Under the pieces are notes generated by a model. It ran no database searches. It was not told the origin of the DNA and worked only from the letters and a program-made list of their open reading frames with translations. A program made the translations under genes and the position numbers. From a virus (Duplodnaviria > Caudoviricetes), in IMG/VR virus record IMGVR_UViG_3300022752_000089, positions 1-54,532 of that record: a stretch of 54,532 bases of DNA; one strand, 5' to 3'. Shown one piece after another: positions 966 to 54,332 of the stretch. Position 1 is the stretch's first letter, and the number at the start of each line of letters is the position of its first letter.

Positions 966-1040
966 GGAGAAATTAGTTTAGTGGTAAAACCACGGGTTGT
1001 GATTCCGTTATCACCAGTTCGATCCTGGTATTTCTCCCCA
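966..1040 (+). tRNA. tRNA-His(GUG)
   Basis: G-1:C73 pair, loop TTGTGAT, TTCGATC T-loop, CCA. Confidence 0.93.
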
Positions 1041-5776: not shown

Positions 5777-7135
5777 ATGTTTAATGATGTAAAAAAATTA
5801 ACTACTGAAGAACTACAAAAAGAACTTCAGGCTATAGAATTATTCAAACAAGAAATTGATAAGGTTAATGTGGATAGTTTATTATCCAAATCAATTAATA
5901 CTTCTTTTCTCGGTCCAATGAAATGCACTATCACACCTAATGGTCAACTGTTCAGAATTGACAAACAAGGCTTCTTACCTGCTATGATGGAAGAAATGTA
6001 TGAAGATAGAAAGAAGTTTAAGAATCTGATGATTCAGGCCAAAAAAGAATATGAGGTCGAAAAAGATGAATCTAAAAAATATGAAATTGAAAAACGTATT
6101 GCCAGATATGACAACTTACAGTTGGCTAAAAAGGTATCACTTAACTCTGCTTACGGTGCTCTTGGTTCTCAATATTTCAGGTTTTATGATTTACGTATGG
6201 CCTTGGGTGTAACCACTGCTGGTCAATTAAGTATTCGTTGGATTGAAAACAAAATCAATGAGTACATGAACAAACTATTATCTACAGAAGAAATTGATTA
6301 TGTTATCGCCTCGGACACAGACTCTATATATCTCAAGCTTGGTCCACTTGTTGATAAAGTGTATTCTAAAAAGACGGATGTTAATCAGCTTATCTCCTTC
6401 ATGGATCGTGTCTGTGAAGATAAGATTCAACCGTACATTGACAAGAGTTATCAGGAGCTTGCTACGTATGTCCATGCATACGACCAAAAAATGCAAATGA
6501 AACGAGAAGGTCTTGCCAACAAAGGTATCTGGATTGCCAAGAAACGTTACATTCTAAACATCTATAATAACGAAGGCGTTCAGTATGCAGAACCTAAGAT
6601 GAAAGTCATGGGTCTTGAGATGGTTAAATCATCTACACCTGCTGCCATTCGTGCCAAGATGAAAGATTCTATCAAGTTGATTATTAATGGTACAGAAGAA
6701 GATATCCATAAATTTATCGCTGACTTCAGAGAAGAATTCAGAAAGATGCCACCAGAAGAAATCTCTACACCACGTGGCATGAACGGATTAAAAACCTATA
6801 CTGATGCGGTATCAATGTATAAAAAAGGTACACCAATTCATGTGAAAGGTGCCATTCTGTATAATCACCACTTGAAACAACTTGGTTTAACCAAGAAATA
6901 TGAGTTGATTAAAGAGGGTGAGAAAATCAAATATACGTATTTGAAGATGCCAAATCCATTTAAAGAAACCGTTATCTCATATCCATCCAGATTGCCGAAA
7001 GAATTTGAGCTTGACAAGTATGTCGATTATGATTTACAATTCGATAAAACTTTCTTGGATCCAATTCGTGGTATTTTGGATTGCATCGGATGGAAAACTG
7101 AGAAAGGTAATTCTTTAGAGGACTTCTTTTCATGA
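5777..7135 (+). CDS. gp43: DNA polymerase B, C-terminal half (gp43B: fingers, palm, thumb)
   Basis: KVSLNSAYG, ASDTDS, KKRY motifs; C-terminal clamp-binding SLEDFF. Confidence 0.95.
   Translation: MFNDVKKLTTEELQKELQAIELFKQEIDKVNVDSLLSKSINTSFLGPMKCTITPNGQLFRIDKQGFLPAMMEEMYEDRKKFKNLMIQAKKEYEVEKDESKKYEIEKRIARYDNLQLAKKVSLNSAYGALGSQYFRFYDLRMALGVTTAGQLSIRWIENKINEYMNKLLSTEEIDYVIASDTDSIYLKLGPLVDKVYSKKTDVNQLISFMDRVCEDKIQPYIDKSYQELATYVHAYDQKMQMKREGLANKGIWIAKKRYILNIYNNEGVQYAEPKMKVMGLEMVKSSTPAAIRAKMKDSIKLIINGTEEDIHKFIADFREEFRKMPPEEISTPRGMNGLKTYTDAVSMYKKGTPIHVKGAILYNHHLKQLGLTKKYELIKEGEKIKYTYLKMPNPFKETVISYPSRLPKEFELDKYVDYDLQFDKTFLDPIRGILDCIGWKTEKGNSLEDFFS
7011..7040 (+). promoter_or_regulatory. internal sigma70-type promoter candidate
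   Basis: TTGACA-18 nt-TACAAT near the end of gp43B. Confidence 0.45.
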
Positions 7136-8097
7136 TTTTTTTGACTTTTCTAACTGCAATAGCATTATCAGCCGTTGCAGCCTATTATTCTGTTATTGGT
7201 TTGGCTGCAATTTTTCCTGGTTCATTTTTGCCTGTTGTTGTTATGGGTTCTGTGCTTGAAGGATCAAAACTTGTAACAGTATCTTGGTTGTATAATAATT
7301 GGAAACAATGTCCAATTCTTATCAAAACATATCTATGTATGGCGATAACTATTCTGATGCTTATTACATCCATGGGTATCTTTGGTTTCTTATCAAAGGC
7401 ACACCTTGAACATTCATCCGATAATGCACCACTTCTAAACAAGATTGCAATCCTGGATGAAAAGATAAAAACGGAGAAAGAAAATGTGGATGCAAACCGC
7501 AAGATACTCAAACAATATGATGAGATTGTGGACCAGACGATGGGTCGCACAACAGATGAAAAAGGTACCGATAAAGCACAAGCGATACGCCGCACCCAAC
7601 AGAAAGACCGTAGTAGAATATTACAAGAAATTAACCAGTCGCAAACCACCATTGCCGCATACTCCGAGGAACGTGCGCCTCTATCTAATGAGCTTAAGAA
7701 AACAGAAGCGGATGTTGGGCCAATCAAATATATTGCCGCCTTACTCTACAGTGAAACTCTTAATGCTGACATCCTTGACAAGGCGGTACGACTGGTAATT
7801 CTATTGATTATTGTGGTATTTGATCCATTGGCAGTGTTGTTATTGATTGCTGCTAATATGTCAATGAGAAAACCAGAACCACCAAAACCGGTTGTTAAAG
7901 AAACAATAGTAACAGAAGAAATGGACATTCCAGTTTTTGTTCCAAAAGATAATTCAATACACGTTGAGAGAGATAACTTGGCAAATATTGTTATAGATGA
8001 GGCTTCAGGTGAAAGTATTCCGCCAATCAGTGGAACAAAAAAACTTCAACCTAAGTATGATTACAGTGAACCATTTTCGTTTAAGGAAAACAAATGA
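7132..8097 (+). CDS. multi-pass membrane protein with coiled-coil
   Basis: Three N-terminal hydrophobic helices, central heptad-rich region, further TM with FDPLAV. Confidence 0.8.
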   Translation: MIFLTFLTAIALSAVAAYYSVIGLAAIFPGSFLPVVVMGSVLEGSKLVTVSWLYNNWKQCPILIKTYLCMAITILMLITSMGIFGFLSKAHLEHSSDNAPLLNKIAILDEKIKTEKENVDANRKILKQYDEIVDQTMGRTTDEKGTDKAQAIRRTQQKDRSRILQEINQSQTTIAAYSEERAPLSNELKKTEADVGPIKYIAALLYSETLNADILDKAVRLVILLIIVVFDPLAVLLLIAANMSMRKPEPPKPVVKETIVTEEMDIPVFVPKDNSIHVERDNLANIVIDEASGESIPPISGTKKLQPKYDYSEPFSFKENK

Positions 8098-9167
8098 GTA
8101 TATTAGATAAAATTAAAAAGAACAGCAGCATCAAAGATTCTGCTATCTTAGCCAAATCAAAATTCTTTAATGATAAAGATATGATTCCAACCGCAGTGCC
8201 AATTATTAACGTGGCACTTTCTGGTAAGTTAGACGGAGGTCTGACACCAGGTCTTACAATGTGGGCTGGTCCATCCAAGCATTTTAAGACTGCTTTCTCT
8301 TTGTTGATGGCCAAATCTTATTTGGAGAAGTACGATGATGCAGCGCTTTTATTTTATGATTCTGAATTTGGTACACCGCAATCTTATTTTGATTCTTTTG
8401 GTATTGATACCAACCGTGTTTTACATACTCCCCTTACTGATATTGAACAGCTTAAATTTGATATAATGGCTCAGTTGACACAATTAGAACGTGGTGATAA
8501 ATTGATTATTGTCATTGATTCGATTGGTAATCTGGCATCTAAAAAAGAAGTTGAAGATGCCTTGGCAGAAAAATCAGTTGCTGATATGTCAAGAGCAAAA
8601 CAAGTTAAGAGTTTGTTCCGTATGGTAACACCTCACTTGTCATTAAAAGATATTCCAATGATTGTTGTCAATCACACATACAAAGAGATTGGTATGTTCC
8701 CAAAAGATATCGTTGGTGGTGGTACAGGTTCATATTACTCTGCCGATAATATCTTTATTATTGGTCGTCAACAAGAAAAAGATGGTACAGAAGTTACCGG
8801 TTACAATTTTATTATCAACGTAGAGAAAAGTCGTTATGTTAAAGAAAAATCTAAAATTCCTGTCAGTGTATCTTTTGATGGCGGCATCAGCACTTGGTCT
8901 GGCTTACTTGACCTTGCTCTTGAATCTAAACACGTAGTCAAACCAAAGAATGGTTGGTATCAACGTGTTGATGCAGATGGTGTTATTGAAGAAAAGAATT
9001 ACCGTGAGAAAGACACCGATACCAAAGACTTCTGGATGCCTATTTTGAAACAAAAATCATTCCGTGATTTCATTGAGAACAAGTACCGTGTGGCATCTGG
9101 TGAAATTATGACCAGTAACATTGATGAAACATTTGATGTTGAAACTATGAACGGAACAGAAGCATGA
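8094..9167 (+). CDS. uvsX: RecA-like recombinase UvsX
   Basis: AGPSKHFKT P-loop, YDSEFG, IDSIGNLASKKE, GGGTG. Confidence 0.96.
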   Translation: MSILDKIKKNSSIKDSAILAKSKFFNDKDMIPTAVPIINVALSGKLDGGLTPGLTMWAGPSKHFKTAFSLLMAKSYLEKYDDAALLFYDSEFGTPQSYFDSFGIDTNRVLHTPLTDIEQLKFDIMAQLTQLERGDKLIIVIDSIGNLASKKEVEDALAEKSVADMSRAKQVKSLFRMVTPHLSLKDIPMIVVNHTYKEIGMFPKDIVGGGTGSYYSADNIFIIGRQQEKDGTEVTGYNFIINVEKSRYVKEKSKIPVSVSFDGGISTWSGLLDLALESKHVVKPKNGWYQRVDADGVIEEKNYREKDTDTKDFWMPILKQKSFRDFIENKYRVASGEIMTSNIDETFDVETMNGTEA

Positions 9168-9484
9168 TTGAAGGAATAGATTACTGCTTCATCTATCCAA
9201 AGGATGATAAAACAGCAGTCAACATTAAACTTTTGGAAGGACCATATAAAGATACTATCTTTAAATATGGTAAGGTAAAATTTAAAGAAGAAAATGAGCA
9301 GGTCTATTTACTTTTTGCTTACGATGTGTTAGAATCACCTGTAATGAAGCCAGCAAAGCTGGAAAAAAATGACACATTTAAGAATTATATTGGTGACTTA
9401 TTGGTAGAAATAATGTCATCTAACATTGAACAGGAAGTAATTGATGAAGCTGGAACAGACGATATTAAAGAACCTAATCTATAA
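9164..9484 (+). CDS. conserved hypothetical protein at the T4 gp40 position
   Basis: Between uvsX and gp41, overlaps both. Confidence 0.7.
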   Translation: MIEGIDYCFIYPKDDKTAVNIKLLEGPYKDTIFKYGKVKFKEENEQVYLLFAYDVLESPVMKPAKLEKNDTFKNYIGDLLVEIMSSNIEQEVIDEAGTDDIKEPNL

Positions 9485-10832
9485 TGATGATTACCTACGT
9501 AAAGTATTACCATTTCTAAAGACAGAATATTTTACCGATAGAACTGATAGGACACTTTTCAATGAAATTACATCATTCACAGAATCTTACAATTCTCCGC
9601 CAACGATTGAAGCACTTGTATTGGCCGTCAAAGAAAAACGAAATCTCACAGATGATGAAGTGGAAAAGTGCGAAACTTATCTACAAGAGATTGAACAAAC
9701 TAAAGACACAGAATCCAAGGTTCAATGGCTTGTTGACAAGACCGAACAATTTTGCCAAGAGAAGGCCATATACAACGCAGTATTGGGGTCTATTTCTATT
9801 CTCGATGGAAAAGACAAAACGAATGACAAAGGTTCGATTCCCAAAATACTATCGGACGCCTTGGCGGTAACGTTTGATACATCCGTTGGCCACGATTATC
9901 TTGAAAACTCCGATGAACGATATGAATTCTATCATAAGAAAGAAGAAAGAATTCCATTCGACCTTGACCTATTCAACAAGATAACCAAAGGTGGTTTGCC
10001 TAAGAAAACACTGAATATTGCTCTTGCAGGAACTGGTGTTGGTAAATCATTGTTCATGTGCCATGTTGCTGCAGGTGCTATGGTACAAGGCAAAAATGTT
10101 TTATATATTACCATGGAAATGGCTGAAGAAAAAATTGCTGAACGTATTGATGCTAATATGTTGAATGTAACTATTGATGACCTTATGGATTTACCGAAAG
10201 AGATGTATGATAGAAAAATTACGAAACTCCGTGAAAAGACTGTTGGAAAACTTATCATTAAAGAGTACCCAACAGCGTCTGCAAGCAGCATACATTTTCG
10301 TACCCTACTCAACGAACTCAATCTTAAAAAGTCTTTTGTACCTGATATTATTTTCATTGACTACCTCAATATTTGTTGTTCTTCTCGCATCAAAGCAGGA
10401 GCCAATGTCAACTCATATTCCTACGTTAAATCCATCGCCGAGGAGTTGCGAGGTCTTGCCGTTGAGTTCGGAGTACCTATTGTTTCTGCGACACAGACAA
10501 CTAGAAGTGGATTTACTTCTTCCGATCCCGGACTTGAGGACACAAGTGAGTCTTTTGGTTTGCCGGCAACCGCTGATTTAATGTTCGCATTGATTTCTTC
10601 CGAAGAACTAGAAGAACTTGGTCAGATTATGGTGAAACAGTTGAAGAATCGTTATAATGATCCAACATTTCATAAGAGATTTACTTTGGGTATTGACAGG
10701 TCTAAAATGAGACTGTATGATATTGAACAATCAGCACAACAAGGTTTGGCTGATGCGGGCCACGATAAACCATTAAATACATTTGGTGACCGTGAAAAAT
10801 CACAGAAGAAATTTACTGGATTTAAAGTATGA
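9444..10832 (+). CDS. gp41: replicative DnaB-like helicase
   Basis: AGTGVGKS, YITMEMAEE, IFIDYLNI, ATQTTR, QLKNRY. Confidence 0.96.
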   Translation: MKLEQTILKNLIYNDDYLRKVLPFLKTEYFTDRTDRTLFNEITSFTESYNSPPTIEALVLAVKEKRNLTDDEVEKCETYLQEIEQTKDTESKVQWLVDKTEQFCQEKAIYNAVLGSISILDGKDKTNDKGSIPKILSDALAVTFDTSVGHDYLENSDERYEFYHKKEERIPFDLDLFNKITKGGLPKKTLNIALAGTGVGKSLFMCHVAAGAMVQGKNVLYITMEMAEEKIAERIDANMLNVTIDDLMDLPKEMYDRKITKLREKTVGKLIIKEYPTASASSIHFRTLLNELNLKKSFVPDIIFIDYLNICCSSRIKAGANVNSYSYVKSIAEELRGLAVEFGVPIVSATQTTRSGFTSSDPGLEDTSESFGLPATADLMFALISSEELEELGQIMVKQLKNRYNDPTFHKRFTLGIDRSKMRLYDIEQSAQQGLADAGHDKPLNTFGDREKSQKKFTGFKV

Positions 10833-11026
10833 ACACAAGAGATATTAAAGAAATAAAAATTAATTTTAATAATAAAAGTTGGGATCCACAAAAATCCAAT
10901 ATATTATTAAAGTATGATCCAAAATCCAAAATGGGTTTTAGTGTATCTATTATTTCTGTTGATTCAGAACCAAAGATTATCAGTTTAGATGAAGCAAACG
11001 AAGTATTAAAGAAATTTAAATTATGA
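10829..11026 (+). CDS. hypothetical protein
   Basis: ATGA overlaps on both sides. Confidence 0.6.
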   Translation: MNTRDIKEIKINFNNKSWDPQKSNILLKYDPKSKMGFSVSIISVDSEPKIISLDEANEVLKKFKL

Positions 11027-12129
11027 AGTTAGAATTTAATGATGCAGTACATTGTGCTAAAGTATTTGAAGATTACTTTGGTAACTTTGACCGGATTGAT
11101 GAATATATGCGTGACCAGAAATTGAATTCTCTGGCTGAACTTCCATCTAATCCTTTGTTTGCAATTGAAGATGAATTGTTTCAGAATTTCACGATGCATC
11201 CAAAAGATATGGATTTTGAAGTATTGGAAATACCATCAGAAACATGGGAAACATTATTGAATATAACTTCTTCACACATTAATATTTCACCAGTCGGTCG
11301 TCAGATTAGATTGGCAGTACGTGAGAAGAACACAGGAAAGTACGTAGGATTCATCCGTCTTGGTTCACCTGTAATCAATATGAAACCTCGTAATGAAATG
11401 CTTGGCCAAGTGTTTACGCAACAAACTGAATGGGGTAAACGATTCAATGATTCTTCAATGATGGGTTTTGTTATTGTACCTGCACAACCATTTGGTTTTA
11501 ATTATCTTGGCGGTAAACTTCTGGCTGCAATCTGTACATCACATGAAGTACGTGAGATTATTAACAAGAAGTATGGTATGAATCTATGTCTATTTGAAAC
11601 TACCAGTCTCTATGGAAGTTCCAAGACTGTTTCACAATATGATGGTATGAAACCATATATCAGATATAGAGGTCTTACTGATTCTGATTTTCTACCTATG
11701 ATGCACGGTAAACCATATTCTGATTTACGTGATTTTGTGGAAAGTAAAGTTGGTAAAATTGTAGAAGATGATATTTCTAGCAAAAAGTTAAAAACATCCA
11801 TGAAGATTATATCACTCACTAAAGCAGCACTTAAAGGTACTCCTGAAGGTGGCACATTCCAAGCAACGATTGAGAAGGCTAAAGGGTTGACAGAGCAGAA
11901 AAGATATTATATCAGTGACTATGGTTTTAAGAACATGGTTGACTATGTAAATTGTAAGACGGACGTGCTTATTCCTGGTGAAAACTATGAAAAACACAAA
12001 TTGGTAAACTTGATTGAGTGGTGGAGAAACAAGTCCATAAATAGATATGAAACACTTAATTCTGAGCGTAGATTGAGGTCTGAATTGGAAATCTGGACCT
12101 CTGGTAAAGATATACAAATTATCAGGTAA
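11023..12129 (+). CDS. DUF4338/DruA-like protein
   Basis: PVGRQIRL, VPAQPFGFNYLGGKLLA, ETTSLYG resemble DUF4338 (Druantia DruA) motifs. Confidence 0.7.
   Translation: MKLEFNDAVHCAKVFEDYFGNFDRIDEYMRDQKLNSLAELPSNPLFAIEDELFQNFTMHPKDMDFEVLEIPSETWETLLNITSSHINISPVGRQIRLAVREKNTGKYVGFIRLGSPVINMKPRNEMLGQVFTQQTEWGKRFNDSSMMGFVIVPAQPFGFNYLGGKLLAAICTSHEVREIINKKYGMNLCLFETTSLYGSSKTVSQYDGMKPYIRYRGLTDSDFLPMMHGKPYSDLRDFVESKVGKIVEDDISSKKLKTSMKIISLTKAALKGTPEGGTFQATIEKAKGLTEQKRYYISDYGFKNMVDYVNCKTDVLIPGENYEKHKLVNLIEWWRNKSINRYETLNSERRLRSELEIWTSGKDIQIIR
12036..12043 (+). promoter_or_regulatory. late promoter candidate
   Basis: CATAAATA ~105 nt upstream of the nuclease gene. Confidence 0.45.
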
Positions 12130-12148: not shown

Positions 12149-13264
12149 ATGGAAAAACAATTAAAATTCAATAGAGGAGATGTAGCTGAAGGTATACTTG
12201 GTGCAGCTATGGCCGCCAAATTTATTAATCGTCCTAAATCTTTAAAAGATAAAAATATTAAACTAACAAAACAAATGATTGATAAAGTTTTAGATGACGT
12301 TTTTAAAAACTCAATGAATCATAAAGAATACAAAGTAAAAGATATTATAGTAAAACAAGGTAAAATATCAATTGATAAAATAGATTTTACAATAAATCTT
12401 CCTATTGCTGCAGCAGATTTATTATCATCTAAAGAAGATAGAAGAATTGTTTATGATTTATATGAATCTTCAATAGAGTATATTGAAGAAACCTGGATAA
12501 ATGAAATACTTATCTTTGCAATCAATGGAGAAATAGATAAAATTGGTATAAGTTCGGATGGTGTTGGTGACCAGAAAGGAACAAAAGCGGATATTAAATT
12601 AAAAGTTAATGGAAAAGATTATTCTAGGCAAATATCTTTAAAAGTTAAAGGTGGCGACCAATTTTTTCAAGTTAGTGGTCATGAATTTGAAAAACAAATA
12701 ACTTTATGGAGTGATATACTTAAATTAGATATCTCAAAGATGAAAAAAAAATATGACGATGCATTATCAAAATATGATAAATCGGAATTTTTTTTGAGTC
12801 GTGAAGATAAGAGAGTTGAAGCTGTTAAAGATATGTTAAAAAACGCAACGTCTATTGTTTATCGTGAAGCTGCAAAACAAATGCAAGCAAAAGTCAAATC
12901 CAAAGACGATATTTTTTTTACTAATTTAGCAACCATTATATTTCATGGAGCTACAAAAGGAAATGAAACGATTGAATTAGTTAAATTGGAAAAAGGCAAA
13001 TTTAAACAATTAAAATTCAATAAAGATTTTGTGAATTCATATTCTGATGTTTTAAAAAAAAATAATTTAAAGATTATGTTTGTTGAGGGTATAGATCCTG
13101 TTGTTAGAGTGTATGCTAATTCGGTTGTTAAAGATAATTTAATAATACAATTCAGGACTAAAATCGCAACGGAATCAACAACAACAAAAGCTGGTAAAAA
13201 ATATTCTCCGTATTTAAGAAATATTGTTGAATCAGGCCCATCAATGTTTAGTTTATCGAAATAA
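12149..13264 (+). CDS. putative PD-(D/E)XK endonuclease
   Basis: GDVAEG helix, KADI...QISLK catalytic pattern; very AT- and Lys-rich. Confidence 0.65.
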   Translation: MEKQLKFNRGDVAEGILGAAMAAKFINRPKSLKDKNIKLTKQMIDKVLDDVFKNSMNHKEYKVKDIIVKQGKISIDKIDFTINLPIAAADLLSSKEDRRIVYDLYESSIEYIEETWINEILIFAINGEIDKIGISSDGVGDQKGTKADIKLKVNGKDYSRQISLKVKGGDQFFQVSGHEFEKQITLWSDILKLDISKMKKKYDDALSKYDKSEFFLSREDKRVEAVKDMLKNATSIVYREAAKQMQAKVKSKDDIFFTNLATIIFHGATKGNETIELVKLEKGKFKQLKFNKDFVNSYSDVLKKNNLKIMFVEGIDPVVRVYANSVVKDNLIIQFRTKIATESTTTKAGKKYSPYLRNIVESGPSMFSLSK

Positions 13265-24965: not shown

Positions 24966-25420
24966 TAGTTATAGCCCACCGTGCTTTATTGGATGGACCA
25001 GACAAAGAACTAGAAAATAATCCAAAACAAATACGATATTGTTTGTCGGAGGGTATTCCTTGTGAGATTGATGTTTGGTGGTATCATGACCGCTGGTGGT
25101 TGGGACATGACAAACCAGAATATGAAACAACTCTTGAATTCCTGTCACAAGATGGCCTATGGATTCACTGTAAGAACCTGGATGCATTAAACTTATTAAG
25201 GGAAGAAGGTATACATTGTTTCTGGCACCAAGAAGATGATGTTACTTTGACCAGTTGGGGATACATCTGGACCTATCCTAAGATAAGAGAATTGTTTCCA
25301 AAAAGCATCGCAGTCTTACCAGAATTGGACAGAGACTATTGGGATTATGCCAAAACAATGCTTATCACAGGAGTTTGTACCGATTTTGTTAATAAATGGA
25401 ACTCCGAAACATATAAATAA
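24962..25420 (+). CDS. glycerophosphodiester phosphodiesterase-like protein
   Basis: IAHRA, EN, EIDVW, LGHD, WIHCKN, GVCTD. Confidence 0.8.
   Translation: MIVIAHRALLDGPDKELENNPKQIRYCLSEGIPCEIDVWWYHDRWWLGHDKPEYETTLEFLSQDGLWIHCKNLDALNLLREEGIHCFWHQEDDVTLTSWGYIWTYPKIRELFPKSIAVLPELDRDYWDYAKTMLITGVCTDFVNKWNSETYK
25412..25419 (+). promoter_or_regulatory. T4 late promoter
   Basis: Perfect TATAAATA ~50 nt upstream of the His-rich operon. Confidence 0.8.
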
Positions 25421-25466: not shown

Positions 25467-26657
25467 ATGTTAACTTTTCAATCGTTTTTAAAAGAAGAAG
25501 CTGAAGGCGGAGAACTTAAGCACATTCATCATGCTGAAGACCGCCCATTAATGCACGGTCATGCCGGTTTTGAACACGCACATGAAGCACTAATGAAGGC
25601 TCATGCTCATATGACCTCTGGTGCAAAAAGCAGTAATCTAACAATGAAATATGATGGTTCTCCATCACTTGTTTTTGGTCATCATCCTTCAAATGGTAAA
25701 TTCTTTGTTGCAACTAAATCGGCATTCAACAAAAATCCAAAGATTAATCACACGGAAAAAGATATTGATAGGAACCACGGCCATGCGCCTGGTCTTGCAA
25801 GAACACTTAAACACGCACTCAAACACCTACCAAAAGTAACACCTAAAACTGGTGTATATCAAGGTGATTTGATGCACCATGCAGAAACCAAACATTTACA
25901 TGAAGGTTTTATTGTAGAAGCAAAAGACAGTAAAGTGTCTTTCACACCAAATACAATCACTTATACTGCTCATGGTGATGCGGCAAAAAAAATTAAAAGG
26001 TCTAAGGTTGGTATAGTTGTTCATCAAAAATACAGTGATGACATGAAAAGTGCTTCTCCTCATGTTGACCACCACAATTTTAAAGAACATCCAGATGTTC
26101 ATATTCATGGTGCTGAACATGATACAAGTAAAGTTAAACATTCTCCTGAGAATGAGAAGAAGTTTCAAACTCACATGGCTGCAGCAAAAGAAATTCACGA
26201 CACGCATGGCCATAAAATGTATGATGCTATGCATCCAAAACATACTGGTGAATCAGGTCATCTTTCTACATACATTAATAAAACTGTAAGACACGATGAA
26301 GTACCATCTGTTAAAGGTTTCAAAGAACATTTAAAAGATGTACACGAAAAACAAGCCGCAAAGGTAAAAACAGAAAAAGCCAAATCAGAAAAAACTGGTG
26401 AAGGCGTTAAACAAATTGCTCATGTTGAAAAGAACAAGTCACATTATGGCAATCTATTTGCTATGCATCACCATTTACATCAAGCCAAAAATGCTTTAGT
26501 AAGTTCTTTAGAAACACATGAAGGACACTACCAACACCACATTGAAGGTAAAAAATCTAAACCAGAAGGTTTCGTTGTGCATCATAATAATGAACCAACT
26601 AAATTGGTTAATCGTGCAGAATTCGCAAAACAAAATTTGTTAAAGGTAAGAAAATGA
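25467..26657 (+). CDS. His-rich ligase-superfamily nucleotidyltransferase (DUF6267-like) with capsid-targeting-like N-terminus
   Basis: TMKYDG (motif I), QGDL, EGFVV (IV), KLV (V); N-terminus MLTFQSFLKEE; ~52 His in 396 aa. Confidence 0.75.
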   Translation: MLTFQSFLKEEAEGGELKHIHHAEDRPLMHGHAGFEHAHEALMKAHAHMTSGAKSSNLTMKYDGSPSLVFGHHPSNGKFFVATKSAFNKNPKINHTEKDIDRNHGHAPGLARTLKHALKHLPKVTPKTGVYQGDLMHHAETKHLHEGFIVEAKDSKVSFTPNTITYTAHGDAAKKIKRSKVGIVVHQKYSDDMKSASPHVDHHNFKEHPDVHIHGAEHDTSKVKHSPENEKKFQTHMAAAKEIHDTHGHKMYDAMHPKHTGESGHLSTYINKTVRHDEVPSVKGFKEHLKDVHEKQAAKVKTEKAKSEKTGEGVKQIAHVEKNKSHYGNLFAMHHHLHQAKNALVSSLETHEGHYQHHIEGKKSKPEGFVVHHNNEPTKLVNRAEFAKQNLLKVRK

Positions 26658-27634
26658 TAACATTTAAAAGTTTTTTAATCAATGAAGGCCGTGGAAAACT
26701 TACTGCGTCTGGTGCAATTGGTGATGAACATAAAAAGAAATATGTTGACCCCCATGTAGGATCTGGAAAATTTTCACACGCATTAGCATCTGAACATGAT
26801 GATTTGCCAAAAGGTTCTTCTGTAAAAATTCATAAAGTTGAACATATTAATGGAAAAATACACGTTCACGCTGAAGATGAAACAGGTAATCATCATACTA
26901 TTCCAATATCCAAATTACACAAACCTGGCGAAGCACCACCAAACAAAGGTCATGAATATGAAAGTAAATTTGTTGATAGAATGAAAAAACATGGAATTAT
27001 GCCTCACCATTTATCAGGTGCAGGTTCAACTAGCGGTACGGATTTTGCTGTAGAACATAAGAAAAAAGGATCAAAAAGTCACTTTCATGCCGGTATCGTA
27101 TCTGGACATTTGCTTAATGGTGAAACAAAAAATGGTGTTACTGCTGCTATGGGTCAGTTGACAATACATCATACAAAAGAAAAAGGTTGGCATATTAAAG
27201 ATTCACAAAGAGAAAAAAGACCAAAATATGCTAAAGCAATTGAACATGCTGGCATTTTGGATCATATGAACGCACACCATCACAATCCAGAAAAATCTGA
27301 AACTACTGCTTCTGGTAGAGCAAAGTCTATTGAAATTCATCATCCAGATTTAAAACCGGCAGAATCATATTTACAGGACCATCATGTACATGTACTACAA
27401 GTTGGTGGACATGGAACTTATAGAGTCGGTACAAAAGATGAAACTGGCCACGGATTGCCAAGAATTTCAGGTGAAGGTAAATGGAGAATCAGAGAAAAAC
27501 AAAAAGGTAATAAAAGCGCTAGAACCGTTGCTTTTCATCCTGCTAGTGTAAAAGCTTTGAAAAAGAGTCATGTTGATTTGGACAAAGATGACCATCTAGA
27601 AGCATTTAAGAAAACATTAGGACATAAAGATTAA
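26654..27634 (+). CDS. His-rich protein, possible PD-(D/E)XK nuclease fold
   Basis: GHEYE...GTDF...NGETK pattern; N-terminus MITFKSFLINE; ~38 His in 326 aa. Confidence 0.6.
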   Translation: MITFKSFLINEGRGKLTASGAIGDEHKKKYVDPHVGSGKFSHALASEHDDLPKGSSVKIHKVEHINGKIHVHAEDETGNHHTIPISKLHKPGEAPPNKGHEYESKFVDRMKKHGIMPHHLSGAGSTSGTDFAVEHKKKGSKSHFHAGIVSGHLLNGETKNGVTAAMGQLTIHHTKEKGWHIKDSQREKRPKYAKAIEHAGILDHMNAHHHNPEKSETTASGRAKSIEIHHPDLKPAESYLQDHHVHVLQVGGHGTYRVGTKDETGHGLPRISGEGKWRIREKQKGNKSARTVAFHPASVKALKKSHVDLDKDDHLEAFKKTLGHKD

Positions 27635-29434
27635 ATGAAATCATTTTTAGATATACTACAAGAGGAAAAGAATGGTGAAAAACACCATGTTTTTACCTTT
27701 GGTAGAATGAATCCGCCTACTACTGGCCACTTGAAGTTAATTGACAAAGTTAAAGAAGTTGCTGCAAAACATAATGCTGGTCATACAGTTGTCACATCAC
27801 ATTCACAAGATGCAAAGAAAAATCCTTTATCTGCCGGTGAAAAAGTAAAACATCTAAAGAGATATTCTCCTGGTACTAATTTTCAATCTTCATCAAAAGA
27901 ACATCCATCGTTCTTACATCATGCAGCTCAATTACATAAACAAGGTGTTTCACATCTTCATATGGTAGTTGGTTCTGACCGTGTACATGAAATGAAAAAT
28001 ACATTAAACAAATATAATGGACCACATGAAGGTGCATTGTATCATTTCAAAAAAATAACTGTACATTCTGCTGGTGAACGTGATCCAGATGCAGAAGGTA
28101 CAACTGGTATGTCTGGTACCAAGATGCGTGAACATGCCAGAAATAAAGACCTTGGAAAATTTAAACAAGGTGTTCCTGGCCACGTTTCTGGTGCTCATGC
28201 AAAAGAGTTGATGCATGACACAAGAAAAGGTATGGGATTACACGAATCTTACAATCGTGGTATGTTTAAGGCTATTTTTGTGACGGGCGGACCAGGTTCT
28301 GGTAAAGATGTTATCATCCGTGAAGCAATTGCTGAATCAAAGGCAGTAGAGTTAAATTCAGTACAAGCTTTTGATTACCTGATGGACAAACAAAGATTGT
28401 CTGAAAAATCTAATGACTTTCGTAGAGAATCAATCAGAAATCGTGGACCTTTGATTATCAATGGACCTGCTGATGACCATTCTCGCATAATTACAATTAG
28501 AGAAGAATTAGAAGAACTTGGTTACGAAACAATTATGGTATTTGTTAATACCACAGACAGAGCCAGCCAAGAAAGAAATCTAAGATTGACAAAAATGATT
28601 GCCGAATCAATCAGACGAGAAAAGTGGGAACTTGCCCAATCTTGTAAAGAATCTTACGTACAAAATTTTGATAACTTCATATATTTTGACAATAGTTCCG
28701 AAATCGAATCTATTGAAGAAGATATTACTGAGACCTATAAAAAAATAAATACATTTATAGACAGTAAAAACTATGGCGAAATTTCTTATTCGTGGTTGGA
28801 AAATCATGGTAGATTGGGTGCCAATGAATCATTTAATTATTTTAAGGAAAATTATCATGCTAAAGAAAATAGTAGATTGGTTGAAAATAAAGCCAAAGGA
28901 CCAAGACTCCAAAGTGGAGGAGGTCCAAAAGCCGATGGTCCAGGAGACATTACCCCAGACAACAGAGCAGGTGACCCCAACTCCGGTGATATCAAGTGGG
29001 ACGGAAACAAAAAAAGAGGTAGTTACACCTTCAAAACGTACAGCGAAGAAAACAACGGCCCCAAAATCAAAATCTACCCAGAGCCAAAAGAAAGCAACTT
29101 CTCCAAAGACAAAGAAACAATAAAAAAGAAAAAGAACACCGATGTTCCTACTGTAAGTCAAAGACTTAGAAATGTAACGACCATCGGTCCAGAATTCGAT
29201 ACACGCCAACAGGGAACAGTATACCCTATGTCTGGTCTAGGCGATGTAACATACAGAGAACAGATAGACTTTAAGAATTTTAGAAGAAAAGTTGTAGAAG
29301 CAATAGACGATCCAGGTGCAAATGATATGGGTGTTGGTGGAACTTTAGGTGGTGCAACCAATAAAGAACCGATGCAGTCATACAAAGACCAAGATAAGAA
29401 CATAACAACTGTAATTAAAAAGAAGAAGAAATGA
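27635..29434 (+). CDS. HIGH-family nucleotidyltransferase (His-rich) fused to a P-loop kinase and low-complexity tail
   Basis: TFGRMNPPTTGH, VVGSDR, MSGTKMR; GGPGSGKD Walker A; N-terminus MKSFLDILQEE. Confidence 0.85.
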   Translation: MKSFLDILQEEKNGEKHHVFTFGRMNPPTTGHLKLIDKVKEVAAKHNAGHTVVTSHSQDAKKNPLSAGEKVKHLKRYSPGTNFQSSSKEHPSFLHHAAQLHKQGVSHLHMVVGSDRVHEMKNTLNKYNGPHEGALYHFKKITVHSAGERDPDAEGTTGMSGTKMREHARNKDLGKFKQGVPGHVSGAHAKELMHDTRKGMGLHESYNRGMFKAIFVTGGPGSGKDVIIREAIAESKAVELNSVQAFDYLMDKQRLSEKSNDFRRESIRNRGPLIINGPADDHSRIITIREELEELGYETIMVFVNTTDRASQERNLRLTKMIAESIRREKWELAQSCKESYVQNFDNFIYFDNSSEIESIEEDITETYKKINTFIDSKNYGEISYSWLENHGRLGANESFNYFKENYHAKENSRLVENKAKGPRLQSGGGPKADGPGDITPDNRAGDPNSGDIKWDGNKKRGSYTFKTYSEENNGPKIKIYPEPKESNFSKDKETIKKKKNTDVPTVSQRLRNVTTIGPEFDTRQQGTVYPMSGLGDVTYREQIDFKNFRRKVVEAIDDPGANDMGVGGTLGGATNKEPMQSYKDQDKNITTVIKKKKK

Positions 29435-29916
29435 AAACTTTTAAAGAATACTTAAATGAAGTTGATGCACAAACCTTGCACCAAGATGCTGAAGAAATTA
29501 AGCGTCAGAAAAAGCATTTAAAAGATAAAGCCAAAGAATACCAAGACCAAGCAGATAGAGAAAAATCAGTAGGTGAATTTGGCGGCGCAGCAGATGCTAA
29601 AGGAAAAGGTTTTGAATTAGCTGCAAAAAATATTAAAGAAGATTCACCTGCATGGCAACGTTCTGCTGGAAAAGATCCAAAAGGTGGCTTAAATAGAAAA
29701 GGTATTGCTTCGTATCGCAGAGAACATCCAGGTTCTAAACTTTCAATGGCTGTTACAACAAAGCCATCTAAGTTGGATCCAGATAGTAAAGCTGCAAAAA
29801 GAAGAAAGTCGTTTTGTGCCAGAATGTCTGGTATGAAAAAAAGGTTAACATCTGCTAAGACAGCTAATGATCCTGATTCTAGAATCAATAAGTCTTTGCG
29901 TAAATGGAATTGCTAA
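29431..29916 (+). CDS. putative internal head protein with basic DUF6321-like module
   Basis: MKTFKEYLNE; KDPKGGLN...RRKSFCARM...SLRKWNC. Confidence 0.75.
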   Translation: MKTFKEYLNEVDAQTLHQDAEEIKRQKKHLKDKAKEYQDQADREKSVGEFGGAADAKGKGFELAAKNIKEDSPAWQRSAGKDPKGGLNRKGIASYRREHPGSKLSMAVTTKPSKLDPDSKAAKRRKSFCARMSGMKKRLTSAKTANDPDSRINKSLRKWNC

Positions 29917-32959: not shown

Positions 32960-33346
32960 ATGTTTGATAATTTGAATGAAGATAATTTCTTAATGTATGC
33001 TGTGAAGTGTTATACATCACCGCATTGCATTTTGTCGGAATTTGAGGGAGATATTAAAAGAACAAAATACCTGAAAAGGTTATTTCGTAGATATAAAATC
33101 ACCAAGACAATCAAAGAAAGACTTATTCTAAATCATATTATCTTATTGAATAATGTTTTTGGTTCTGAAGCAACAGCAAGAATATTATTCTATAAGACTG
33201 ATGAACGAGATTATGATATATTGAAAACGTTTTTATCTTATTTAAACATTGCACCAGATATGGTGTATGGAATTAGAGGTAAAAATATATCAGTAGCAGA
33301 AATTCCATTAGATTTAAATGTCGCAGAGATATTAATACAAATATGA
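32960..33346 (+). CDS. conserved T4-like hypothetical protein
   Basis: LNEDNF...KYLKRL...ERLILNHIILLNNVFG. Confidence 0.8.
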   Translation: MFDNLNEDNFLMYAVKCYTSPHCILSEFEGDIKRTKYLKRLFRRYKITKTIKERLILNHIILLNNVFGSEATARILFYKTDERDYDILKTFLSYLNIAPDMVYGIRGKNISVAEIPLDLNVAEILIQI

Positions 33347-33822
33347 AAACTTTTAAACAATACATAGATGAAAAAGGAAGATGCTGGCCAGGTCATAAGC
33401 CTGTACCAGGAAAGAAACCTTTTTCTCCAGGAAGTTGTATGAAAGAATCAGCTGCAGCCGCTATTGCAGCTGCAACAGCAATATCTAAAAAGAAATCTGG
33501 AGATTATGATTCAAAAGGATTTCGTAAAACAAAATATAAAAACCCAAACAATCCTAATATAAAATCAAACGAGCAAAGAAGAAAAGAACTTGCTGAAGAT
33601 TTAAGAAAATGGTTTGCTCAGAAATGGGTTCGCATGGATACCAAAGGTAATATCAAAGGGGATTGTGCTCGTGATCCTGGTGAAGGCAAACCTAAATGTC
33701 TTCCACAAGCAAAAGCACAAGCTTTAGGTAAAGAGGGAAGAGCTTCAGCTGCTAGAAGAAAACGCAGAGAAGATCCAAATCCAGAACGCCGTGGTGCACC
33801 AATTAATGTTAGGACAAAATAA
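33343..33822 (+). CDS. putative internal head protein
   Basis: MKTFKQYIDE; CWPGH module; EDLRKWF...KPKCLP module. Confidence 0.75.
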   Translation: MKTFKQYIDEKGRCWPGHKPVPGKKPFSPGSCMKESAAAAIAAATAISKKKSGDYDSKGFRKTKYKNPNNPNIKSNEQRRKELAEDLRKWFAQKWVRMDTKGNIKGDCARDPGEGKPKCLPQAKAQALGKEGRASAARRKRREDPNPERRGAPINVRTK

Positions 33823-50251: not shown

Positions 50252-51218
50252 TAATTTACCAGAGCAAATAAATGGTGTCGTTACAACTTACAAGAATCTG
50301 GAAGCGCAGGCTGTTGCTGACGGTTATAATATTGTGTATCTTGACCCCTCTCGATTTCCCCATATTAACGCTCCTCGTTATCCGGAAGTTAAACTCTCTT
50401 GGGTTCGTAAAATCGGTAGAAAGATTAAAGAGATACAGCCGGACCATATTCATATCGCAACAGAAGGTCCAGTGGGGCTTGCTTGCCGTGTGTGGTGTGA
50501 CCGTAAGAATCTTACTTACAATACCGCTTATCATACTAAGTTTCCCGAAGGGATAAAGAAACTGCTTGGTATTCCAGAATTTATCACATGGTCTTATGTC
50601 CGTTGGTTTCATAAACATTCTGGTAAAGTACTCACTACGACCGAAACAATGGTGAATGACCTGAGATACCATGGCTTTGATGGTACAGTCATTCCATGGA
50701 CTAGAGGTGTTGACCGTGATATTTTCAATCCAAATCATCGTGTAGAAACAACCAGTAAATATTTGGTCTGTGTCAGTCGTGTCAGCAAAGAAAAGAATTT
50801 GGAAGATTTCTTAGAAATGGACTTTCCAGGTTATCTCAAAGTCATGGTCGGTGACGGGCCTATGTTAGAGACATACAGAAAGAAATACCCTGATGTACAC
50901 TTTACTGGTTTCAAAACTGGTATACAGTTGGCTCAGTATTATGCCAATGCAGAAGCATTTGTATTCCCATCCCGTTGGGAAACATTTGGTATTGTTATGA
51001 TTGAAGCCATGGCTTGTGGTACTCCTGTTGCCGCATTTCCGACTGCCGGTCCTATGGACGTAATTGAAGAAGGCAAGACTGGTTTTATGGACAAAGACCT
51101 AAGTACAGCAGTATACCGCTGCTTAGGCCTTGACAGGGACAAGGTACTAGAGTATAGTATAAAGTGGAGCTGGGAACATTGTTGGAAGATATTTAAGGAT
51201 AATCTAGTACCTGTATGA
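50223..51218 (+). CDS. GT4 glycosyltransferase, Agt-like (DAG glycosyltransferase candidate)
   Basis: QINGVVTT, HIATEGPVG, YHTKFPE, WTRGVD, FPSRWETFGIVMIEAMACG. Confidence 0.88.
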   Translation: MTKTILIVTDNLPEQINGVVTTYKNLEAQAVADGYNIVYLDPSRFPHINAPRYPEVKLSWVRKIGRKIKEIQPDHIHIATEGPVGLACRVWCDRKNLTYNTAYHTKFPEGIKKLLGIPEFITWSYVRWFHKHSGKVLTTTETMVNDLRYHGFDGTVIPWTRGVDRDIFNPNHRVETTSKYLVCVSRVSKEKNLEDFLEMDFPGYLKVMVGDGPMLETYRKKYPDVHFTGFKTGIQLAQYYANAEAFVFPSRWETFGIVMIEAMACGTPVAAFPTAGPMDVIEEGKTGFMDKDLSTAVYRCLGLDRDKVLEYSIKWSWEHCWKIFKDNLVPV

Positions 51219-51862
51219 AACCAAAGATAGCATTATTTCTACACCAACCAAAATGTTCAGTACAATCTGGTAATGGTATCATGCAATCTCTTTCCAAGTA
51301 TTATGACTTTAAGATATTCACTAAGCATAAAGTAGAAGATGACTTCTTTGACGATATCCAAATCACTGCGTTCCCCGGTGGTATTGGCGATTCCGAATCC
51401 TACCAATTCCTATTCAAAGAAAACGGAAAGACCATAAAACAATTTGTACGCCGAGGTGGTAAATACCTCGGTATTTGCATGGGCGGCTATTGGGCAACTA
51501 ATCACTACTTTAATCTCCTTGATGGAATTCATGCTGAGCAATACATCAAGCGTCCTAACACAGACACCAGGAGACCTCACGCCAAGAACCAACGAGTCCT
51601 GTGGGCTGGCGAAGAGCAGAGAATGTTCTTCTATGATGGGCCTGCATTTACTGGTCCTGGTCTTGCATCGTCAGAGATAATCTCCTTATATCCCAATGGC
51701 GATCCGATGGCTCTTATACAGGACAATGTAGGGGTTATCGGCTGTCATCCAGAAAGTACACCACACTGGTACAATACATACTCATGGATGAAGCCTCATT
51801 ATCACGGTGGAGAGCATCATAAATTACTATTAGAGTTCACTGACCAACTAATAAGGAAATAA
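51215..51862 (+). CDS. BPL_N-like class I glutamine amidotransferase-fold protein
   Basis: FPGG, GGKYLGICMGGY, GCHPE. Confidence 0.82.
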   Translation: MKPKIALFLHQPKCSVQSGNGIMQSLSKYYDFKIFTKHKVEDDFFDDIQITAFPGGIGDSESYQFLFKENGKTIKQFVRRGGKYLGICMGGYWATNHYFNLLDGIHAEQYIKRPNTDTRRPHAKNQRVLWAGEEQRMFFYDGPAFTGPGLASSEIISLYPNGDPMALIQDNVGVIGCHPESTPHWYNTYSWMKPHYHGGEHHKLLLEFTDQLIRK

Positions 51863-51863
51863 A

Positions 51864-51995
51864 ATGTCTTGGTTCAAACATAGTCCACCAAAATATCCAC
51901 CGAACCACACACCAGTACCACCGCCACAGAGAACCAGTCCGGCCACAGAGAAAAGTCTAAAGGCAGCAAAGAAAAAAGGACCTAAGAAAAAATGA
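51864..51995 (+). CDS. 43-aa Pro/Lys-rich micro-protein (not in ORF track)
   Basis: MSWFKHSPPKYPPNHTPVPPPQRTSPATEKSLKAAKKKGPKKK; SD AAGGA; ATGA overlap. Confidence 0.6.
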   Translation: MSWFKHSPPKYPPNHTPVPPPQRTSPATEKSLKAAKKKGPKKK

Positions 51996-52198
51996 GAGTT
52001 ACCTATCCTTTTCTTGCGGCACTCCGAAAAAACGAGATGGACCATCATTACCTAAAGTGGTCACAGAACAGAATGAATTATGTTGACCATCTGCACAGAA
52101 AAGGTGACCATTTCAAATCGGATATGATTGCTCTGTACAACAAACGTGGTGACCTAAAACGGTATCAGGACAGGACAACTATTGACATTTTTCTTTGA
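51992..52198 (+). CDS. hypothetical protein
   Basis: ATGA-coupled ORF. Confidence 0.6.
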   Translation: MRVTYPFLAALRKNEMDHHYLKWSQNRMNYVDHLHRKGDHFKSDMIALYNKRGDLKRYQDRTTIDIFL

Positions 52199-52210
52199 AT
52201 GTAATATAAT
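52182..52210 (+). promoter_or_regulatory. sigma70 promoter
   Basis: TTGACA-17 nt-TATAAT, followed by SD AGGAG. Confidence 0.8.
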
Positions 52211-52232
52211 TTCGTTATAGGAGAGAATTATA

Positions 52233-52442
52233 ATGTCTGAAGAAACACAATACAAATACGAAGGCCAGTATTCGTCTGGAGGAACATTCTCAATAGCCAA
52301 CAACTGGCCAAAACCAGTGGGTTATTGGGTATTATATCCAGGAGCTTTTCGTACATCATTTGCCATGTATAAGAAACCTCATAGAATACAGATTTGGTTT
52401 ACAGAGAAACTGTTAGGATGGAAGTGGGAGGATGCAAAATGA
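52233..52442 (+). CDS. hypothetical protein
   Basis: Promoter and SD upstream; LLGWKW C-terminal motif. Confidence 0.75.
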   Translation: MSEETQYKYEGQYSSGGTFSIANNWPKPVGYWVLYPGAFRTSFAMYKKPHRIQIWFTEKLLGWKWEDAK

Positions 52443-52663
52443 AATATTACAGAATATCTTTTGAAGGTGAATGTGGCCAGCATGTAGAAGAAACGTGGTC
52501 AGAGAAACAAATCCTTGGATCATCATGGTATCGCAATTGGGTATTGATGATGGTACAGGCGGACAAAGCCTTTTTGATGGCTGATGAAACAGCCATTGAT
52601 GACTGGTGTGTTGTACATTGGGCTGTAGAGGTAGAGAAACCCGATTGGATTGATGAAAAGTGA
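52439..52663 (+). CDS. hypothetical protein
   Basis: ATGA-coupled; IDDWCVVHWA motif. Confidence 0.75.
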   Translation: MKYYRISFEGECGQHVEETWSEKQILGSSWYRNWVLMMVQADKAFLMADETAIDDWCVVHWAVEVEKPDWIDEK

Positions 52664-52749
52664 ATTTTTCTCTTGGAGCCACCTGAAAAAAATTTTGAAT
52701 CCTTGGGAACCGGCCGAGAAAATAAAAAATAGGAAAAAAGAGTTTGACC

Positions 52750-52803
52750 TGGTGGGGCTTTTTATATAAACACATACCACCACCCCACCAACCCCACCAC
52801 CAA
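52750..52803. repeat. CCACC / GGTGG repeat with an inverted copy
   Basis: TGGTGGGG at 52750 is complementary to CCCCACCA at 52783 and 52792, within ACCACCACCCCACCAACCCCACCACCAA. Confidence 0.7.
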
Positions 52804-52821
52804 CTGCTCTCCCACTGAGCC

Positions 52822-52855
52822 AAAAAAAAAGACCGAGAGCACAGCTCAATCGGTC
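52822..52855 (-). terminator. intrinsic terminator of the minus-strand early transcript
   Basis: GACCGA-TT-GAGC-TGT-GCTC-TCGGTC hairpin followed by T9 on the minus strand. Confidence 0.8.
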
Positions 52856-52897
52856 CGAAAGCAGCACGGTTTTCAGTGCCATACCTGTCCTGTCAAA

Positions 52898-53548: not shown

Positions 53549-53623
53549 TTTGCTTTCCTTTTTTGATTTGATGGAAGGAGTATATCATTCCTGGTTAAAA
53601 TGGCAACTGTAAACTTTTTTCTT
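53549..53623 (-). promoter_or_regulatory. early promoter cassette, copy 1
   Basis: AAGAAAAAAGTTTACAG-TTGCCA-16 nt-TATACT, leader TCCATCAAATC, SD AAGGA. Confidence 0.8.
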
Positions 53624-53754
53624 CAAGCAAGCAACTGGAGTATTCTCTGAGCCGCTACGTGTACACCATGCACGGTTTCGCTTGCCAAAGCCAGCACAAT
53701 TGTATTATAATATGCGCCCACTAAAGCTCCAACCACAAAAAAGACTACTTTCAT
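53623..53754 (-). CDS. 43-aa membrane micro-protein
   Basis: MKVVFFVVGALVGAYY..., SD AGGA; the longer track start would run through the structured RNA. Confidence 0.55.
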   Translation of the reverse strand: MKVVFFVVGALVGAYYNTIVLALASETVHGVHVAAQRILQLLA

Positions 53755-53790
53755 TCTAATTCCTAAAATGTTAACTTCTGTTTTCAATTT

Positions 53791-53898: not shown

Positions 53899-53900
53899 GT

Positions 53901-54316: not shown

Positions 54317-54332
54317 CCAGTTGCCTGTGTGG

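Follow-up and report, generated by a model that had tools for sequence, protein, structure and literature searches.

Selected histidine enrichment in place of hydrophobic residues in three adjacent, probably capsid-packaged enzymes of a T4-like phage

Among the closest described counterparts of the genes considered here are the internal proteins (IPs) of bacteriophage T4. In the T4 record, ipII and ipIII both start with MKTYQEFIAE and ipI starts with MKTFKEF. According to PMC9026906, a ten-residue capsid-targeting sequence (CTS) suffices for packaging, with residues 4 and 7 acting in targeting and residues 8 and 10 directing processing, and packaged green fluorescent protein appears to refold after injection. 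Here, we describe three adjacent genes, A, B, and C, that carry leaders resembling the T4 sequences and encode enzyme-like proteins with 11 to 13% histidine (in C, within the first domain only). They lie in a 54,532-nucleotide stretch of phage DNA (IMG/VR record IMGVR_UViG_3300022752_000089, positions 1 to 54,532), termed the window below, a fragment without head genes from a T4-like (Kyanoviridae-type) phage whose nearest isolate matches are marine cyanomyoviruses and the Pelagibacter phage HTVC008M. We find that the histidine excess is genuine, conserved, and under selection, and that it is limited to certain domains of proteins that, judging from their sequences, are probable capsid-cargo enzymes. 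The genes and domains concerned are as follows (aa, amino acids).

25467..26657, + strand: gene A, 396 aa; DUF6267, RNA-ligase-like putative covalent nucleotidyltransferase with a capsid-targeting-like leader (residues 1-10); 13.1% His
26654..27634, + strand: gene B, 326 aa; predicted SH3/Tudor-like barrel and HhaI-like PD-(D/E)XK nuclease fold; 11.7% His
27635..29434, + strand: gene C, 599 aa; nucleotidyltransferase domain, P-loop kinase-like domain, and Lys-rich tail
27635..28246, + strand: gene C, residues 1-204; leader and cytidylyl/adenylyltransferase-like (HxGH) domain; 22 His (10.8%)
28235..28246, + strand: GLHE junction (C residues 201-204); end of the His-rich domain, ancestral gene-fusion point, and candidate prohead-protease site
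28247..29434, + strand: gene C, residues 205-599; net acidic P-loop kinase-like domain with GGPGSGKD, then a Lys-rich tail; 3 His among 395 aa

Histidine accounts for 52 of the 396 residues of A, 38 of the 326 of B, and 22 of the first 204 of C, after which the remaining 395 residues of C hold only three. This exact recount agrees with the hand counts of a first-pass annotation of the same DNA, which had also described the His residues as scattered across three apparently unrelated folds, with a sharp boundary at GLHE and normal neighboring genes; each of these observations is borne out here and below. Relative to a background of 2.2% His, the binomial tail probabilities are 1.6e-24 for A, 1.3e-16 for B, and 1.3e-09 for the C domain, and the other 65 of the 68 open reading frames (ORFs; greedy, ATG-initiated) in the window range from 0 to 6.7% His. 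Spacings from i+1 to i+8, including HxH, HxxH, and HxxxH, are not above those of shuffled sequences in A, B, or the C domain, with the exceptions of i+6 in the C domain (z 2.8) and i+8 in B (z 2.1), and the residues are therefore scattered and do not form a tag. Neither A nor B contains a single Cys. The three His-rich units are poor in hydrophobic residues (22.1-23.5%, versus 32.1% in the kinase domain). For A, a net charge of +16 is calculated at pH 7.5 and of +68 at pH 5.

An unusual composition might in principle be a neutral or mutational artefact, produced by base-composition bias, by reassigned CAY codons, or by relaxed selection on decaying genes, and the composition itself is what such an origin would account for. 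The codon data speak against it. In-frame CAY codons make up 13.1% of A, 11.6% of B, and 10.8% of the C domain, where base composition predicts 2.7 to 3.2%, and they reach only 0.3 to 4.9% in the other two sense frames. One antisense frame is CAY-high as well (9.5-10.8%), but normal neighboring genes show 5.0 to 9.4% in that frame. Synonymous positions, at which the first-pass annotation would have expected a mutational bias to show, look normal as well, with C at 7 to 9% of 4-fold sites in the His-rich units, 7 to 12% in the normal genes compared, and 18% in the rest of C. Five His residues of A (19, 22, 104, 186, and 334) are His in low-His homologs too, leaving approximately 47 extra, and these shared positions indicate that CAY is decoded as His. 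Decay of the genes is likewise at odds with catalytic motifs that look intact, with confident structural models, with conserved His sites, and with the breadth of the trait: A has relatives in more than 590 IMG/VR loci, and in all of the approximately 140 loci with a scorable A homolog (80 nearest kept per scan) that homolog contains 8.0 to 16.3% His. The excess is not due to mutational bias, and an artefactual origin is extremely improbable.

Conservation within the family argues instead for selection on individual sites. Across 117 clade sequences of A (71-94% identity), conservation is 0.87 at His sites and 0.80 elsewhere, with 36 columns at least 90% His; in the nucleotidyltransferase domain, the corresponding values are 0.69 and 0.61. 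The His content of the domains also moves together, as expected if they share one pressure, a suggestion already made in the first-pass annotation. Among 42 fusion proteins, the His percentage of the DUF6267 domain tracks that of the rest of the protein (Spearman 0.74, p 2e-8), and across 78 distinct locus pairs, His in A covaries with His in the nucleotidyltransferase domain (rho 0.42), neither correlation being corrected for phylogeny.

What His replaced is evident from the same families. In 133 DUF6267 domains, His percentage falls with LIVFYWMC content (rho −0.75, slope −0.91), the trade being against Leu, Ile, Phe, and Tyr, and similar relationships hold for the nucleotidyltransferase family (rho −0.71, n = 87) and the B family (rho −0.76, n = 116). 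Of 15 phylogenetically independent pairs, 8.3 went in the expected direction, 1.1 in the opposite one, and 5.6 showed no difference (median p 0.039). As proxies for His burial, we used the hydrophobic columns of low-His homologs and the secondary structure of the models. Of the 49 scorable His residues of A, 16 occupy positions at which a set of 30 low-His homologs is predominantly hydrophobic, about the same share as for other residues (92 of 318). Strands are the part of the A and B models richest in His, at 19.5% and 19.8% of residues, respectively, versus 8 to 12% in helices and loops. Overall, the alignments indicate that the His excess is a selected, site-conserved recoding, mainly in place of hydrophobic residues, a pattern that points to fold stability or solubility. 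The charge switch of the first-pass annotation, by contrast, predicts His in place of Lys or Arg, and that replacement is not seen. Exchange for Lys, Arg, or Glu was considered for DUF6267 and rejected (slopes of +0.14, −0.12, and 0.01; net charge rho 0.24). The pattern does not fit His standing in for permanent cations: Lys rises slightly, net charge is unchanged, and Leu, Ile, Phe, and Tyr are lost.

A metal-loaded cargo would be a different use for so many imidazoles. Here the scattered His residues would meet in three dimensions and bind Zn, Ni, Co, Fe, or Mn, either stabilizing a hydrophobic-poor fold or carrying metal into the host. At 11 to 13% His, adventitious multi-His sites are almost certain, metal cross-links could offset the low hydrophobicity (22-23.5%), and the patchiness of the trait among lineages (15 state changes over 18 rows, described below) fits habitat-dependent metal availability. 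A specific metal site, however, predicts spacing motifs or Cys, and neither is seen: HxH, HxxH, and HxxxH stay at shuffled levels, A and B lack Cys, and Cys declines as His rises across DUF6267 (rho −0.55). Profile searches of the window proteins also matched no metal-binding family. We consider a metal-loaded cargo unlikely.

The three recoded units belong to unrelated folds that, judging from sequence motifs and models, still look catalytically intact. Protein A matches Pfam PF19782 (DUF6267; E 6e-95), and its predicted structure is confident (predicted local distance difference test [pLDDT] 91.1, predicted template modeling score 0.89). A VIA structural search with this model is led by RNA ligases, with NgrRnl (Rnl5) of Naegleria (5cot) at the top (Z 8.8, root mean square deviation [rmsd] 4.2, 189 aa), followed by T4 Rnl2 (2hvq; Z 7.9), Trl1 (7.8), REL1 (7.7), and T4 Rnl1 (7.2), and by DNA ligases at Z 6 to 6.8. 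RNA and DNA ligases dominate the list from Z 8.8 to 5.5, although a Z near 8 is a common best score. Foldseek against the PDB returned weak ligase rows for A (best E 0.033), with no match at E 0.001 or better for either A or B, and phmmer searches of the PDB with A gave none. Across 76 sequences, conservation reaches at least 90% at K61, D63, G64, E367, G368, V370, and K379, giving a KxDG, an EG.V, and a later Lys, which we take to be ligase motifs I, IV, and V. Protein A thus looks like an RNA-ligase-like enzyme with intact catalytic motifs.

One loop of A deserves separate mention. Residues 144 to 151 (window positions 25896-25919) contain the words LHE and IVE, and residues 146 to 152 form the sole internal stretch of A with pLDDT below 50. 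Residues 143 and 145 are without counterpart in the family alignment, and half-gene representatives either start at the equivalent of A residue 155 or 156 (P0268, P0325, P0339, and P0344) or end near residue 140 (P0352 and P0306). The ligase-like enzyme may be cut or split at this loop.

Protein B is modeled with a pLDDT of 86.2 as an SH3/Tudor-like barrel (residues 20-93) followed by a nuclease fold (residues 97-321). In VIA, the latter part matches HhaI (6uke) with Z 10.9, rmsd 3.7, over 180 aa; the next row has Z 6.6, and Hjc has Z 6.0. Residues D130, E157, and K159 are invariant in 44 sequences and fit the D...(D/E)xK triad, and B accordingly looks like a PD-(D/E)XK nuclease-like protein whose predicted catalytic residues are intact. 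No family match to B was found in profile searches, nor a tblastn match in an isolate phage collection. Kinship of B with a 352-aa protein of HTVC008M or with the window ORF at 12149 was considered and rejected, as neither similarity is significant (E 0.13 and 1.2). Within the locus B is accessory; it is missing from many close relatives or replaced, and in one of them (L023) A is followed directly by C.

The first 204 residues of C score above cut-off with PF01467 (27.8 bits versus 21) and TIGR00125 (34 versus 27.7) and look like an intact HxGH nucleotidyltransferase. A more specific assignment as an NMN (nicotinamide mononucleotide) adenylyltransferase of the NadR/NadM type was rejected, given scores far below cut-off with TIGR01527 (15.4 versus 181.2) and TIGR01526 (12.8 versus 341). 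Residues 205 to 400 are P-loop kinase-like, with family matches at the level of the P-loop alone, all below cut-off; against the PDB, C gave a single weak match to an adenylate-kinase P-loop (E 0.19). The boundary between the two parts is conserved: GMG[LIV][HN]E is retained in 62 of 62 fused homologs (44 distinct junctions), and a linker of variable sequence separates it from the P-loop. Stand-alone homologs of the nucleotidyltransferase (87 proteins of 195-215 aa, with 5.9-13.9% His, median 9.2%) end near the same point in the 40 whose C termini were compared, mostly in ...HDVQHGSK or ...RKGMGHND. Because the stand-alone proteins end there, the GLHE boundary is a gene-fusion junction. The first-pass annotation had read GLHE as a cleavage site of the T4 gp21 type. 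An L-x-E does stand at the His boundary, but the site is foremost a fusion junction, with cleavage a candidate function: the conserved [LIV]-x-E fits a protease site and could equally be structural, and C contains 11 [LI]xE words where approximately five are expected by chance.

The leaders suggest a link between these enzymes and the capsid. Only five of the 161 ATG-initiated ORFs of at least 50 aa in the window start with M..[FYW]..[FYWIL].{0,2}[LI].E, and they form one cluster comprising A, B, C, and the two genes listed here.

29431..29916, + strand: gene D (DUF6321); leader very near the T4 ipI leader; normal His content, 1.9%
33343..33822, + strand: leader-bearing ORF (ORF 33343); 0.6% His

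The strict leader rules (aromatic residues at positions 4 and 7, Leu or Ile at 8, and Glu at 10) fit A, C, D, and ORF 33343, and in B the I-x-E is shifted by one. The leader of A is retained in 108 of 116 full-length clade homologs, and the leaders of A and B are predicted with pLDDT below 50 (residues 1-3, 5-10, and 12-14 of A; residues 1-10 of B), as appendages outside the folds. A complete 172-kb relative (G001), whose A homolog is 87% identical, encodes a gp21-type protease (PF03420, 111 bits, E 3.4e-33). Leaders of the T4 type suggest that A, B, and C are loaded into the prohead, trimmed, and injected, and we consider it likely that all three are capsid cargo. The co-packaged module envisaged in the first-pass annotation is plausible to the extent that these leaders and the relative's protease support it. 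Beside this, the freshwater Synechococcus phage S-SRM01 (L160) carries at 6388-8231 two adjoining paralogs with a leader nearly identical to that of T4 ipII and ipIII, as well as a nearby leaderless DUF6267-like gene with 2.7% His.

Alternatively, the proteins might never enter the virion. The three domains would then form a cytoplasmic complex whose His-rich surfaces are there for a common ligand or partner, such as nucleic acid, polyphosphate, or the other members of the complex, and the leaders would have some different purpose. The relatives' module does lie in the replication region, between the gp41 helicase and the gp61 primase, DUF6267 and the nucleotidyltransferase are often fused (the 42 proteins above), and leaderless homologs exist. 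What makes such a complex improbable is the leader itself, which matches the T4 CTS rules position by position in five clustered genes and persists through most of the clade as a low-confidence extension.

The trait is unevenly distributed among lineages. The first-pass annotation had asked whether all homologs are equally His-rich, and they are not: cyanophage, pelagiphage, and Melnitz homologs have 1 to 2.5% His, and the 120 nearest protein clusters of A (71-94% identity; best 120 of 6255) have 10.5 to 15.1%. Marine isolates are ordinary, with 1.7% (DUF6267) and 2.5% (nucleotidyltransferase) in S-MbCM7 and 1.0% for each in HTVC008M. Among the best 150 representatives at 50% clustering, 133 DUF6267 domains span 1.0 to 14.3% His (median 6.8%), and on a FastTree phylogeny the state of at least 10% His (18 rows) needs 15 changes, so that either the trait has switched many times over or the phylogeny is of low resolution. 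In the complete relative G001, with 1.59% His over 212 ORFs, only the A homolog (13.4%) and the first domain of the C homolog stand out. The same contrast recurs in IMG/VR loci with a measurable homolog, at 8.0 to 16.3% in DUF6267, 7.2 to 14.5% in the true nucleotidyltransferase, 0 to 3.1% in the kinase, and mostly 1.3 to 4% in the background. A second cytidylyltransferase paralog (282-292 aa) with 1.0 to 1.7% His coexists with the His-rich copy in L103 (7149-8015), L112 (7719-8567), and L131 (7687-8565), which argues that neither fold nor genome dictates His content.

Some short loci with a higher background carry other, unrelated His-rich ORFs in the A/C slot. L010 has two at 10191-11582 (258 aa, 10.5% His, and 203 aa, 14.3%) and L032 has one at 739-1917 (392 aa, 10.5%); the His-rich ORFs of L010, L032, and L097 matched no Pfam family. 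In the cultured soil phage DLP6 of Stenotrophomonas (L159), the cytidylyltransferase at 6724-8892 has 24 His in its first 300 aa and 14 in the remaining 422, and the leader-bearing DUF6267 protein has 3.4% His. The DLP6 gene at 8919-10220, annotated as the exodeoxyribonuclease VII large subunit, encodes 7.4% His. At least half of the words of the window DNA are present in nine sequencing runs besides the two possible source runs, six of them labeled as freshwater metagenomes and three only as "metagenome" (studies P2-P5), and no RNA run is among the runs listed as containing it. With window DNA in lake and freshwater runs and DLP6 from soil, set against marine isolates, we hold loosely to the idea, drawn from a handful of cases, that low ionic strength in lake or soil drives the trait.

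From the leaders, the composition, and the His-for-hydrophobic trade, we infer the following sequence of events. A, B, and C would be made late and loaded into the prohead through their T4-type leaders; a gp21-type protease would trim them after [LI]-x-E, with C possibly cut additionally at the GLHE junction; and the proteins would be injected with the DNA. Substitution of His for hydrophobic residues would yield a fold of low hydrophobicity whose core can be titrated. Inside the capsid, with the polyanion of packed DNA alongside, the imidazoles would take up protons and leave the protein cationic, loosened, and inactive, and the loosened protein could then thread the tail and refold at cytoplasmic pH. 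We assign this whole explanation, leader-bearing capsid-cargo enzymes with selected His recoding and a pH/folding step, a probability of roughly 0.35.

Several of the same facts could be read without any role for pH. T4 makes the Lon inhibitor PinA, and loss of Leu, Ile, Phe, and Tyr to His might likewise protect injected, unfolded chains by removing segments recognized in aggregation and by host proteases and chaperones. Such protection would suit a His-for-hydrophobic trade-off common to three unrelated families and the apparent refolding of packaged protein after injection described in PMC9026906. It leaves unexplained, however, why His was taken over other polar residues and why the trait spares the kinase domain and the remaining genes with leaders, and we regard it as quite improbable.

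A number of observations weigh against the cargo and pH/folding explanation. The T4 IPs themselves contain 1 to 2% His, gene D and ORF 33343 bear leaders and are nevertheless His-normal, and homologs from Melnitz (English Channel) and C48C1 have leaders with 1.2 to 2.4% His; His is therefore not required for packaging. Leader presence barely predicts His content among 118 representatives (medians 6.9 versus 6.2, p 0.07), and the fused kinase domain, which would share the capsid, has only its three His. In B, His sites are conserved no better than other sites (0.66 versus 0.69). The independent-pair test is borderline, with p ranging from 0.006 to 0.29, and the low-ionic-strength idea draws on very few isolates. 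Finally, the late-promoter-like motif upstream of A is not enriched in the window, with two copies against a shuffle mean of 5.4, and by itself it says little in favor of late expression.

Two further features of the window are listed below.

25412..25419, + strand: T4 late-promoter-like TATAAATA; lies 48 nucleotides before gene A and overlaps the stop codon of the preceding ORF
967..1040, + strand: tRNA-His(GTG), one of 14 clustered tRNAs

The A/B and C/D junctions are 4-base overlaps and B abuts C; A, B, and C probably form one tightly coupled, late-expressed operon. The tRNA-His to which the first-pass annotation pointed is present but, as one of 14, says little; the cluster (63-2432) includes two genes each for tRNA-Met(CAT), tRNA-Gly, tRNA-Arg, and tRNA-Leu. 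Elsewhere in the window, the ORF at 12149-13264 is very AT-rich (GC 0.28 in that kilobase) and encodes 15% Lys, and the right end (51000-54532) has a GC content of 0.42 to 0.49 versus approximately 0.35 elsewhere.

Site-conserved recoding from hydrophobic residues to His, arising convergently in three unrelated folds, is not known to have been described as a way in which proteins adapt. A literature search returned no paper on DUF6267 and, among the papers listed, nothing linking histidine richness to phage internal or ejection proteins. If the leaders have the same meaning here as in T4, a ready-made kit of ligase, nuclease, and nucleotidyltransferase is injected by T4-like phages of aquatic habitats that form a large and abundant group (6255 clusters of A homologs, in addition to the IMG/VR loci above). 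In some lineages, these enzymes have been rebuilt so that roughly one in eight of their residues is His. More broadly, His-for-hydrophobic recoding might be a general phage way of storing nucleic-acid enzymes against a packed genome, in which the enzyme is protonated and inactive in the capsid and then deprotonates, releases DNA, and refolds in the cytoplasm. How far the recoding goes would depend on the ionic strength of the surrounding water, as the pH offset of the capsid would grow in dilute lake or soil water. We consider this generalization possible but doubtful. An explanation of the trait would reveal how a protein can endure being stored in a capsid full of DNA and then ejected from it, and would provide a sequence signature for injected phage enzymes, and the cultured phage DLP6, with its His-rich nucleotidyltransferase domain, makes the question testable at the bench.

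Individually, the proteins resemble known enzymes with clear departures. Protein A shares its best structural matches and its conserved KxDG, EG.V, and later Lys with ATP-dependent RNA ligases, from which it differs in middling Z values, in having no sequence-level PDB match, and in a large helical insert at residues 227 to 348. Protein B is likened to the PD-(D/E)XK nucleases HhaI, Hjc, and I-Ssp6803I by its fold match and its invariant D130, E157, and K159. It differs from HhaI in its extra SH3/Tudor-like N-terminal barrel and has no detectable sequence similarity to that enzyme. As a set, a ligase-fold enzyme, a nucleotidyltransferase, and a P-loop kinase recall the RNA-repair pair of T4, Pnkp and Rnl1, as well as the NadR-type fusions of NMN adenylyltransferase and kinase. 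Here, however, the NMN adenylyltransferase models score far below cut-off, no phosphatase domain is seen, and delivery of the enzymes ready-made is proposed.

The histidine content also invites comparison with proteins outside this group. Very high His content is found in Hpn and in the His-rich tails of HypB, SlyD, and UreE, but there the His residues sit in tracts or tails, in many cases together with Cys, whereas in the phage proteins the His residues run through whole folds with no spacing signal, and A and B are without Cys. Titratable His and partial unfolding through a narrow conduit are features of switches of the diphtheria toxin T domain type and of viral fusion proteins; these switches rely on a handful of His residues and endosomal acid, unlike the tens of His per domain and the hypothetical acid step here. 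In layout, the genes resemble those of T4 IPI, IPII, and IPIII and the packaged enzyme Alt. In contrast to the IPs, which are small, basic, and 1 to 2% His, the proposed cargo would consist of nucleic-acid enzymes of 37 to 68 kDa with 11 to 13% His, and it shares with these T4 proteins the ten-residue leader rules, an arrangement in clustered mosaic genes, and, in a relative, the gp21-type protease.

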